Source of the DNA: Candidatus Micrarchaeota archaeon
Lineage (GTDB): Archaea > B1Sed10-29 > JAJRYS01
Direction of reading: 5' to 3'
Length of the DNA stretch: 5,200 nt
NCBI GenBank assembly: GCA_964496415.1
Contig: CAZBZN010000032.1
Span: 1-5,200 of the forward strand
This document shows positions 3,621-5,200 of the stretch, in pieces (the stretch's first letter is position 1; each line of letters begins with the position of its first letter). The notes under the pieces are model-generated. The model had not been told where the DNA came from. It saw nothing but the letters and a program-made list of their open reading frames with translations, and ran no database searches. A program made the translations under genes and the position numbers.

Positions 3621-3822
3621 GCTCCGATCTTCTAGTCCGGTCAAGGATACAGGCCTTTCAAAAGAGGGGTTGCACCCCTTCTAACCCTGCAGGCGGCGTT
3701 CGCTTATGCTCAGCCGCCTATTCAACCAAAGCAGGGAAAAAATGGGTTGCACCCGTTGTCTTTTATAAAAAAAGACTACTTGAAGAAAGCCTGTGACCCG
3801 GGTTCAAATCCCGGTCGGAGCA
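3621..3822 (+). tRNA. tRNA-Glu: tRNA-Glu(TTC) with a 127-nt intron; exons 3621-3660 and 3788-3822
   Basis: Acceptor GCTCCGA/TCGGAGC plus A3822, D-loop AGTCCGGTCA, anticodon stem CAGGC/GCCTG with TTC at 3657-59, T-arm CCGGG-TTCAAAT-CCCGG. Confidence 0.95.
3661..3787 (+). other. Canonical 37/38 tRNA intron, 127 nt, strict BHB
   Basis: CTTT(3655-58) pairs with GAAG(3782-85). Bulges are CA|A and AA|A, and the flanking stem is AAG(3662-64)/CTT(3779-81). Confidence 0.9.
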
Positions 3823-3878: not shown

Positions 3879-3900
3879 GTTCAGATCCCGGTCGGAGCAT
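3879..3900 (+). repeat. Direct repeat of the tRNA-Glu 3' end
   Basis: GTTCAGATCCCGGTCGGAGCAT versus GTTCAAATCCCGGTCGGAGCAT (3802-3823): 21/22 identical, offset 77 nt. Confidence 0.9.
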
Positions 3901-4044: not shown

Positions 4045-4080
4045 AGGTTTAAAATTCTTCTTTTAACAGTAGTGGTAGTA

Positions 4081-4917
4081 ATGATAGTAGTTACTGGAGG
4101 AACTGGTTTTGTTGGAAGAAGACTAATAAAAAGAATCCAAGGAGAATACAAAATCATAACAAGAAAACCAAGTGACAAAAACCATGAAAAGGCAGACATA
4201 AGACGCTATGAAGACGTTTTAAAAGCAACAAAAGACGCTGAAGTAATAATTCACCTTGCAGTTAACAGCAACCATTTTGGTTCTTTTAAAAACTCTTATG
4301 AAACAAACGTCATAGGAACAAAAAACCTGCTAAAAGCAGCTGAAAAAAACCAAGTGGAAAAATTCATCTACTTAAGCAGTGCTGCAGTAAACTCCCCTTA
4401 CAACACCAATTACACTCTTTCAAAAAAACTAGCAGAACAAGAAGTACTAAAACATCTTGAAACCATGAACATTTCAATCCTAAGACCATCGTTCATTTAT
4501 GATGAAAAAAGAATATCAGCAATGAAAAAAGCCTTCATGCTTCCTTTTCCTTTCAAAAAGCAAAAATTAAGACTCTGTTACATTGAAACAATCACAGACG
4601 CAATAATAAAAGCAGTGGAAAAAGGAAAAAACAAAATCTACGAAGTAGGCGACAAAAAAGAAATAACTTTAACAGAACTGAGAAAAGCAGTAACGAAAAA
4701 TCCTTTATGGGTTCCAGGATTTTTAATAGAAACCGCAGCAATAATGACCTCCCCAATAGAAATAATAACAAGCTTTACTGACTATAAGATACCAATAAGT
4801 TCATTTATCCTAAACAGCTTTACTGACAAAACCTTAAACGTAAGAGAATCAGCAAGAGAATTAAAATACAAACAATATGATACTATAAAACTCTTTAAAC
4901 AAGGGGCTGTAGTGTAG
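4081..4917 (+). CDS. NAD-dependent epimerase/dehydratase (extended SDR family)
   Basis: Motifs TGGTGFVG, 'IIHLA', 'NVIGTKNLL', 'YLSSAAV', YxxxK (YTLSK) and 'ILRP'. ATG4081 is preferred, with TTTAAA at 4048-53 about 28 nt upstream. The stop codon lies inside tRNA-Pro. Confidence 0.9.
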   Translation: MIVVTGGTGFVGRRLIKRIQGEYKIITRKPSDKNHEKADIRRYEDVLKATKDAEVIIHLAVNSNHFGSFKNSYETNVIGTKNLLKAAEKNQVEKFIYLSSAAVNSPYNTNYTLSKKLAEQEVLKHLETMNISILRPSFIYDEKRISAMKKAFMLPFPFKKQKLRLCYIETITDAIIKAVEKGKNKIYEVGDKKEITLTELRKAVTKNPLWVPGFLIETAAIMTSPIEIITSFTDYKIPISSFILNSFTDKTLNVRESARELKYKQYDTIKLFKQGAVV

Positions 4918-5185
4918 CCAGGACTATCACTCCGGCTTCGGGAAACACGTCTTCCATGCTGTAACTCTCGGCGGCCCCATCAGCCGCGTACGGCTGGCGG
5001 ACAGGTAGGTGGGTTTCCGCTGACGCTTCAACCCACCGCACTGTGGCAGTAAGCATCTCTTTTAAGGGGCCGTAGTGTAGCATGGTCTATCACCCAGGCT
5101 TGGGGTGCCTGTAACCCGAGTTCAAAAACATGAGAAGACGTGTTAAAAAAAGCCGGTAACCCCAGTTCAAATCTGGGCAGCCCCA
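4903..5185 (+). tRNA. tRNA-Pro: tRNA-Pro(CGG) with a 208-nt 37/38 intron (4943-5150); exons 4903-4942 and 5151-5185
   Basis: Acceptor GGGGCTG/CAGCCCC plus A5185, anticodon stem CCGGC(4932-36)/GCCGG(5152-56) with CGG at 4939-41, T-arm CCCAG-TTCAAAT-CTGGG. BHB geometry has bulges GG|A and AA|A, but only 2 of 4 central pairs form. The mature tRNA would be 75 nt. Confidence 0.92.
4966..5126 (+). tRNA. tRNA-Pro: Circularly permuted tRNA-Pro(GGG) nested in the tRNA-Pro(CGG) intron: 3' piece 4966-4979, 5' piece 5066-5126
   Basis: The 5' piece runs GGGGCCG...CAGGC-TTGGGGT-GCCTG-TAAC-CCGAG-TTCAAA (anticodon GGG at 5102-04). The upstream T-CTCGG-CGGCCCC-A completes the T-stem (CCGAG/CTCGG) and acceptor stem (GGGGCCG/CGGCCCC) perfectly. 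The mature tRNA would be 75 nt. Confidence 0.87.
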
Positions 5186-5200
5186 TACAGCTTCAAAAAG

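Follow-up and report, generated by a model that had tools for sequence, protein, structure and literature searches.

A candidate permuted tRNA-Pro(GGG) gene nested in the intron of an archaeal tRNA-Pro(CGG) gene

Can the intron of one transfer RNA (tRNA) gene carry a second tRNA whose own pieces stand in permuted order? This question is raised by a locus at the end of a 5,200-nucleotide (nt) contig of a Candidatus Micrarchaeota archaeon (contig C32 of genome G000; 687 kb in 41 contigs, 91% complete, 36% G+C). The contig was analyzed whole and is referred to here as the window. Positions 4903-5185 form a tRNA-Pro(CGG) gene, the outer gene, with a 208-nt intron between tRNA positions 37 and 38 (37/38), and a circularly permuted tRNA-Pro(GGG), the inner gene, lies inside that intron. 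In the inner gene, the last 14 nt of the tRNA (positions 60-73) precede the first 61 nt (positions 1-59); a spacer of 86 nt separates the two pieces, and the junction lies in the T-loop at 59/60. We consider it probable that the locus is one transcription unit for two nested proline tRNAs, of which the inner one is permuted and matured by bulge-helix-bulge (BHB) splicing via a circle. An earlier note on this DNA had divided the locus into seven segments, and all of their coordinates were confirmed on the sequence, as follows.

4903-4942, + strand: outer tRNA-Pro(CGG) 5' exon, positions 1-37; acceptor strand GGGGCTG, D arm, 5' strand of the anticodon stem, CGG and G37
4943-4965, + strand: left flank L; 5' part of the outer intron and, at the same time, the inner leader before nt 60; 4944-4958 is one strand of the shared helix
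4966-4979, + strand: inner tRNA-Pro(GGG) 3' piece, positions 60-73; U60, T-stem strand CTCGG, acceptor strand CGGCCCC and A73; CCA not encoded
4980-5065, + strand: spacer joining inner A73 to G1; 86 nt, with a hairpin at 4982-4995
5066-5126, + strand: inner tRNA-Pro(GGG) 5' piece, positions 1-59; GGGGCCG, D arm, GGG anticodon arm, variable loop, CCGAG and T-loop U54-A59
5127-5150, + strand: right flank R; inner trailer after nt 59 and, at the same time, 3' part of the outer intron; 5129-5144 pairs with 4944-4958 in the shared helix and leaves A5133 bulged
5151-5185, + strand: outer tRNA-Pro(CGG) 3' exon, positions 38-73; A38, 3' strand of the anticodon stem, variable loop, T arm, CAGCCCC and A73; CCA not encoded

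Both inner pieces thus lie on one strand with the 3' piece first, and the identical order was found in genome G004, which belongs to another genus of the same family. Directly after the outer 3' exon, positions 5186-5200 are the start of a repeat module, ACAGCTTCAAAAAG, and the contig ends there.

The pieces were joined in silico by their coordinates and then scored with ARAGORN. The outer pieces (4903-4942 with 5151-5185) gave tRNA-Pro(cgg) with a score of 120.4, and the inner pieces (5066-5126 with 4966-4979) gave tRNA-Pro(ggg) with a score of 120.0. All 20 of the 20 stem pairs were standard in each product. The inner product has G35, G36, G37 and A73, and its acceptor and T stems, formed between 4966-4979 and 5066-5126, are without a mismatch. 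A comparison of the inner with the outer tRNA shows 12 differences among 75 positions, and because these include three fully compensated pairs (6:67, 28:42 and 51:63), the halves are specific to their partners. This had been claimed from the sequence and agrees with the two perfect cloverleaves obtained after joining. Two mismatches, A-G and C-A, had been expected if the halves were cross-paired. The C-A mismatch is present (C6.A67, in the acceptor stem), but the A-G mismatch is not; the pair concerned is G51.G63 in the T stem (by eye).

Cross-pairing is also what a collinear reading of the locus would require. Here, the inner 5' piece would supply the front of tRNA-Pro(GGG) and the outer 3' exon its T arm and acceptor strand, once an intron had been removed from the variable region, and 4966-4979 would be meaningless. 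The Rfam tRNA model does match such a hybrid at 5066-5185, with 39.4 bits against a threshold of 29. Isoacceptors of Caldivirga reportedly share one 3' part (work attributed to Fujishima in 2009), and the hybrid would resemble tri-split tRNAs in this respect. However, the joined hybrid contains the C6.A67 mismatch and scored 107.0 in ARAGORN, compared to 120.0 for the permuted product. It also gives no reason for the conserved 14-nt piece, which in either genome fits the inner acceptor and T stems without a mismatch, and it accounts neither for the co-change from C5:G68 to U5:A68 between these genomes nor for the inner piece's own T-stem strand and T-loop. A collinear Pro(GGG) is in our view highly improbable. 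The permuted gene escaped the standard tools in other ways as well: ARAGORN with default settings reported 0 tRNAs in the window, and when introns were allowed it reported 4903-5185 as one gene with an intron of ~210 nt and with the anticodon misplaced by one base.

We then examined the predicted structure of the precursor. The unconstrained minimum free energy (MFE) structure of the 283-nt segment 4903-5185 corresponds exactly to the double cloverleaf with an L/R helix (-123.8 kcal/mol, z -5.4), a value that 0 of 200 shuffles equaled, and enforcing the nested model costs 0.0 kcal/mol relative to the MFE. A stem of ~15 bp with one bulged A had been proposed to link the two tRNAs. The L/R helix does comprise 15 bp, between 4944-4958 and 5129-5144 with A5133 bulged, and its duplex energy of -22.1 kcal/mol (z -7.0) was as good in 0 of 1000 shuffles of the right strand.

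Both splice sites were evaluated in a single BHB register. In this register the 3' bulge consists of the last two intron nt and the first exon nt and is followed by four central pairs; the 5' bulge consists of the last two exon nt and the first intron nt and is followed by the distal helix. The same register gives perfect motifs on the ordinary 59/60 introns of G004 and, by eye, of G003, a further genome of the family. At the inner site the T stem has 5 of 5 pairs, the bulges are A-C-U60 (A4964-C4965 and U4966) and A58-A59-A, three of the four central pairs form, and the distal helix has 4 + 11 bp around A5133, which bears out the BHB-like motif with these bulges and central pairs that had been described at T-loop position 59/60. 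At the outer site the anticodon stem has 5 of 5 pairs, the 3-nt bulges are G36-G37-A and A-A-A38, and the distal helix starts from intron nt 2, but only two of the four central pairs form, a point absent from the earlier note; the A-run 5145-5150 in R contributes to the central helix and the 3' bulge. One and the same L/R helix is therefore the distal helix of both BHBs, of the outer one at the anticodon stem and of the inner one at the T stem. In G004, the inner BHB has three of four central pairs (one of them G.U) and a distal helix of 15 bp.

The frequency of such a layout in the genome was assessed with a strict scan for T-loop 5' halves whose T stem and acceptor stem could be completed by a 3' piece no more than 700-800 nt away. 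The strict scan returned 36 match rows, with some genes represented twice: 23 were normal, 11 had a T-loop intron, 1 was a mixed pairing and 1 was permuted, namely the locus at 4903-5185. In the mixed row, the acceptor strand of the outer 5' exon is paired to the inner 3' piece via a U.G wobble. There were no permuted rows in the controls, which comprised the reversed genome and three triplet shuffles, and a chance origin of the permuted layout is unlikely.

An assembly chimera near the contig end would be a simpler explanation. Only 15 nt separate the locus from the end of the 5.2-kb contig, contigs of this metagenome-assembled genome often break at repeats that flank tRNA genes, and DNA run X2, from another study, represents the locus by two pieces without errors, whose overlap is the repeated module 4981-5010, so that coverage is split there. 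However, an 8274-nt JGI contig (L088) is identical across 4701-5200 of the window and extends 119 nt beyond it, and one Logan contig of DNA run X1, which may be the source sample, covers 4600-5188 with 0 differences. The same architecture is present in G004, an independently assembled genome of another genus. The arrangement for which the earlier note had wanted spanning reads is thus borne out by L088, by the X1 contig and by the X2 pieces, and a chimera is extremely unlikely. Contigs of X1 and X2 also gave an apparent match to the spliced joint 4942>5151. This candidate was rejected as a spliced form: the contig concerned is 3342 nt long, shows 5 + 2 mismatches and represents the intron-less paralogue tRNA-Pro(UGG) of contig C27.

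If the nested genes are real, related genomes should carry them as well, and the earlier note had pointed to layout and covariation in relatives as a check. G004 provided both. By RtcB it is the closest of the genomes compared, with 86% identity versus at most 71% in the 15 other matching genomes (18 were searched, G000 included). Its locus (L034 1376-1718, identical to JAJRYS010000011.1) has the order outer 5' exon, L, inner 3' piece, a 38-nt spacer, inner 5' piece, R and outer 3' exon, and the outer 3' exon bears an additional canonical intron at 59/60. The products joined in silico scored 120.7 (CGG) and 121.0 (AGG) in ARAGORN. Between G000 and G004, the inner tRNA differs at 14 of 75 positions, with three compensatory pairs (5:68, 11:24 and 28:42), one one-sided change from G:C to G:U and no pair-breaking change. 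The 5:68 pair is C:G in G000 and U:A in G004, with C5 in the downstream 5' piece and G68 in the upstream 3' piece; as far as sequences can tell, this co-change is direct covariation across the permutation. The L and R strands of G004 are unrelated to those of G000 in sequence and length, yet they pair with each other (-28.8 kcal/mol, z -5.1; 0 of 1000 shuffles as good), and cross-species control duplexes between the L and R strands of the two genomes were no better than shuffles. The 38-nt spacer is likewise unrelated to the 86-nt spacer of G000.

Pattern scans located the layout in no further genome. A class-wide pattern scan found it in 2 of 31 genomes (G000 and G004), a scan of GTDB species genomes found one locus, that of G004, and a scan of JGI metagenome records found four loci, consisting of L088, which is identical to the window, and three chance matches in unrelated sequence.

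The outer tRNA differs at 7 of 75 positions between G000 and G004, with one compensatory and no pair-breaking change. These figures bear on the view that the outer gene is a dead shell, in which a cassette with a replacement tRNA was inserted into the anticodon loop of a pre-existing gene that no longer functions. The inner gene, however, is a different isoacceptor and is permuted, and thus is not a complete and collinear replacement copy. The outer exons are conserved, flank a BHB in the canonical register in an archaeal host with EndA and RtcB, and are the only Pro(CGG) sequence found. A nonfunctional outer gene is accordingly a very remote prospect in our assessment.

The inner tRNA also appears to be needed. 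Apart from that of the inner 5' piece, no tRNA-like GGG anticodon arm was found in the assembly, and a BLAST search of the 91%-complete assembly with this piece recovered nothing beyond itself, the outer gene and the Pro(UGG) gene on C27, which lacks an intron. The possibility of a second tRNA-Pro(GGG), which had been raised with the original reading, was thus met by a negative result in both the BLAST and the anticodon-arm searches of this assembly. Among proline codons in 305 long open reading frames (ORFs), CCT accounts for 52.6%, CCC for 3.5% and CCG for 4.9%, and CCU and CCC together make up ~56%.

Wherever sequence analysis could address the interpretation in the earlier note, it agreed with it. 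For the nested reading, we infer a single transcript, an order of cuts, a 161-nt circle and two mature products. One transcript would be made and would fold into the double cloverleaf. EndA would cut it four times, after 4942, 4965, 5126 and 5150, and RtcB would ligate 4942 to 5151, yielding tRNA-Pro(CGG), and 5126 to 4966, closing the inner T-loop in a 161-nt circular pre-tRNA. RNase P (or the HARP-like protein) would then cut before G5066 and RNase Z after A4979, by which the 86-nt spacer would be removed, and the CCA enzyme would complete both tRNAs. AT-rich TATA-like boxes were seen by eye upstream of the outer tRNA. An ORF of the NAD-dependent epimerase/dehydratase family (4072-4917; Pfam, 70 bits) overlaps the outer 5' exon by 15 nt; either the tRNA promoter sits inside the end of this ORF or the two are cotranscribed.

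The genome encodes the enzymes for these steps. Both enzymes of BHB processing are present, EndA (PF01974, 113 bits, and PF02778, 45 bits; contig C18) and RtcB (PF01139, 576 bits; C1). For the tRNA ends there are an RNase P RNA of the archaeal type (144.7 bits), a HARP-like protein of the PIN_5 family (225.8 bits; C11), RNase Z (356 bits; C14) and a CCA-adding enzyme domain (151 bits). Because about eleven other rows of the strict scan were T-loop-intron rows, the host endonuclease seems to handle 59/60 sites routinely. The first ~55 nt of the spacer copy the GC-rich hairpin modules found behind the 3' ends of ordinary tRNAs in this genome (BLAST; C5:33873-33918 and contigs C15, C17, C14 and C1). 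The spacer hairpin begins 2 nt after inner A73, and the same hairpin stands behind seven other tRNA 3' ends in the genome; of 29 strand-hits of the hairpin motif in the genome, 8 start 2-3 nt after a tRNA discriminator, the inner gene's included. At the other end, the last ~18 nt of the spacer before G1 are predicted to be unpaired. With a trailer hairpin after A73 and an unpaired stretch before G1, the inner ends look like routine substrates of RNase Z and RNase P.

These ends would also suit a pathway without a circle. The spacer could be cut first, by RNase P and RNase Z, or could hold a terminator and a promoter, and two paired RNAs would then be trans-spliced at both BHBs to the same products. 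One RNA would run from the outer 5' exon through L to the inner 3' piece and the other from the inner 5' piece through R to the outer 3' exon, each with the start of one tRNA and the end of the other, like a reciprocal pair of split tRNAs. All helices of the model would equally hold two separate RNAs, the trailer hairpin and the unpaired, T-rich stretch make both ends resemble normal substrates before splicing, and trans-spliced split tRNAs are established in archaea (PMC3218864). However, no TATA-like box was seen by eye ~25 nt upstream of G5066, and the spacers of G000 and G004 are alike in neither sequence nor length (86 versus 38 nt). The permuted tRNAs studied so far, those of Cyanidioschyzon merolae, mature through circles (Soma et al. 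2007, cited in PMC3978253). We regard trans-splicing of two RNAs as rather unlikely, and a route through the circle is the one that we prefer.

Several observations weigh against this preferred reading. The two genomes with the layout are each other's closest kin and effectively represent one evolutionary event; no protein genes were found by tblastx to be in common between the window and the G004 flanks, and none were shared with the G003 locus either. The outer BHB has a poor central helix, with 2 of 4 pairs in both G000 and G004, and in G004 enforcing the model costs 9.4 kcal/mol relative to the MFE structure, which does not contain the inner cloverleaf. The only EndA found (G000:C18:3373-3939) has 188 amino acids (aa) and is colinear with the alpha4 enzyme of M. 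jannaschii (1a79), a second EndA subunit was not found in the genome by tblastn and two Pfam models, and the alpha4 type has been described as strict for canonical BHBs (PMC5829648). DPANN alpha4 EndA enzymes with an extra loop accompany disrupted tRNA genes (PMC5829648). One transcript would give the two tRNAs at 1:1, but their codons are used at about 56% versus 5%. The assembly is 91% complete, which leaves room for a second Pro(GGG) gene, and the sequencing runs listed for 4700-5200 of the window are all DNA runs, with no RNA run among them. Finally, the inner anticodon of G004 is AGG. An A at position 34 (A34) is very unusual in archaea. The high share of CCT among the proline codons of G000 could favor an A34 tRNA.

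The last three of these points, the incomplete assembly, the DNA-only runs and the changed anticodon in G004, are equally what would be seen if the inner tRNA were a decaying relic in an intron, with only the outer Pro(CGG) maturing and CCU and CCC being read by another tRNA. A relic would accumulate breaks in its stems, however, and the 14 differences between the two inner tRNAs include three compensatory pairs and no pair-breaking change. The inner BHB and its flanking helix have been maintained with different sequences, CCU is the commonest proline codon, and searches of G000 and G004 for a further Pro(GGG) or Pro(AGG) gene were negative. Decay of the inner gene is thus improbable. As a separate observation, tRNA-Pro(AGG) occurs in two genera of the family: in G004 (L034 1503-1563) and in G001 (G001:C85, L109), where the gene stands alone and has a D-loop intron.

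How could a permuted gene with a junction at 59/60 have arisen? Among ordinary Pro(GGG) genes of relatives, 7 of 13 have an intron exactly at 59/60 and 6 of 13 are contiguous (boundaries by eye). The introns measure 34 nt in G003, which belongs to the same family, 40 nt in G007, 12 nt in G027, 12 nt in G030, 24 nt in G019, 11 nt in G021 and 28 nt in G045. With introns at 59/60 in 7 of the 13 relatives' genes, the permutation junction coincides with an old intron site. The G003 intron forms a canonical BHB with 4 of 4 central pairs (by eye), and in this genome Pro(CGG) with a 37/38 intron and Pro(GGG) with a 59/60 intron are separate genes. In G002, also of this family, neither a Pro(GGG) nor a Pro(AGG) gene was found by BLAST and two patterns. 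Permuted genes have been proposed to derive from intron-bearing genes (PMC3978253), and the 59/60 finding fits this proposal. The route into the CGG intron may have been a tandem duplication followed by loss, a step that we infer only.

A doubled 3' piece occurs elsewhere in the window. The tRNA-Glu(UUC) gene at 3621-3822 has a ~127-nt intron at 37/38, and its last 14 nt (nt 60-A73) are repeated without change 63 nt downstream, at 3886-3899; a doubled 3' piece similar to this one is present in G002 (contig C4). The second copy might have been left by an integration event, might serve as an alternative 3' piece or might mark a step on the way to permutation.

Archaeal BHB introns at 37/38 can carry functional RNA, for example box C/D guide RNAs in the introns of tRNA-Trp or tRNA-Met. 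The present locus is similar to these in having a probable 37/38 BHB intron with a putative RNA cargo, but its cargo is a second tRNA that would need its own splicing and end processing. The permuted tRNA-iMet and tRNA-Tyr genes of Thermofilum pendens have the same 3'-piece-first order, the 59/60 junction and a BHB formed by leader and trailer, and each is the sole copy of a needed tRNA (PMC3218864). The likeness to Thermofilum in the T-loop junction had been recognized from the sequence, and the site is indeed 59/60 in both (PMC3218864; PMC3978253). The Thermofilum genes are independent units, each behind a promoter of its own; they encode CCA, and their spacers are 7 and 1 nt long (PMC3218864). 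In contrast, the micrarchaeal gene lies inside a 37/38 intron, its leader and trailer are the ends of that intron, its spacer is 86 nt long (38 nt in G004), CCA is not encoded, and the host is not a crenarchaeon.

The permuted tRNAs of C. merolae and green algae share the permuted order, a BHB at the junction, spacers of up to 85 nt, a circular intermediate and, in type IV, a junction at 59/60 (PMC3978253). Some of the algal genes also have introns with independent BHBs, but these genes are eukaryotic, any intron lies within the permuted tRNA itself, and in the cited parts of that source none is described as the cargo of another tRNA's intron (PMC3978253). The split and tri-split tRNAs of Nanoarchaeum equitans and Caldivirga maquilingensis are likewise joined through complementary flanks that form a BHB, which is cut by EndA before ligation (PMC5829648; PMC3218864). 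Their pieces are encoded at separate loci with separate promoters, whereas the four pieces of the present locus lie within 283 nt on one strand.

In searches of the literature on permuted, nested or intron-encoded tRNAs, no description of a permuted tRNA inside another tRNA's intron was found among the matches listed, in line with the earlier note, whose author knew of none. The terms "permuted" and "intron" do not occur in Mukai 2022 (PMC8762117). The locus combines a BHB intron and a permuted tRNA in nested form; both kinds of disruption are known, and their nesting is apparently undescribed. We think it likely that one precursor, cut four times at two BHBs that share a helix, yields two proline tRNAs, of which the major one (for CCU + CCC, 56%) passes through a 161-nt circle. 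This would be the first tRNA gene in another tRNA's intron, the first archaeal permuted tRNA outside Thermofilum and a preserved intermediate between a 59/60 intron and a permutation.

Disrupted tRNA genes, whether intron-containing, split or permuted, are central evidence on the origin of tRNA genes and on how these forms are related. The present locus unites two of the forms, and its relatives keep the presumed precursor with an intron at the junction site, which makes for a testable case of a transition from intron to permutation. An intron that delivers a second, essential tRNA, with the maturation of two isoacceptors coupled via one shared helix, would be a new gene economy in a 0.69-Mb genome. 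Since standard tRNA finders miss such a gene or report a false hybrid, DPANN tRNA sets that look incomplete may hide similar genes.

Some further features of the window and of related genomes were recorded. An antisense ORF at 4895-5083 (62 aa) had no Pfam match, and an Rfam match to SNORD14 at 2307-2423 was rejected as a chance hit (22.4 bits against a threshold of 64 bits). Modules with GC-rich hairpins stand behind tRNA 3' ends and at many contig ends, and they also fill introns and spacers. They are found in the window at 4982-5034 and 5186-5200 and in G000 on contigs C1, C4, C5, C14, C15, C17, C21, C23, C26 and C27; examples are AGCCGCGTACGGCT, a GGGGAT...ATCCCC hairpin and GCTTCAAAAAGC. 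In the hairpin copy of the window, the stem is changed in a compensatory way and the loop is kept.

Other disrupted tRNA genes are also present. A class II tRNA at 1636-1878 of the window, by eye tRNA-Ser(CGA), has a 37/38 intron with a TGATGA box and a 123-nt T-loop intron; it overlaps two ORFs and was reported neither by default ARAGORN nor by the Rfam scan. On the minus strand of G000:C1:73300-73900, a tRNA-Tyr (with an intron), a tRNA-Leu(UAA) and a tRNA-Asp(GUC) with a D-loop intron are separated by arrays of hairpin modules, and ARAGORN mislabels the tRNA-Asp gene as Pro(tgg). G000 also bears D-loop introns and relaxed BHBs, alongside its single alpha4-like EndA. Among the RtcB matches, that of G004 (L111, G004:C29:5794-7086) contains one in-frame TAG, and that of G009 (L118, G009:C1) lies in an open frame of 988 aa that may hold an intein.

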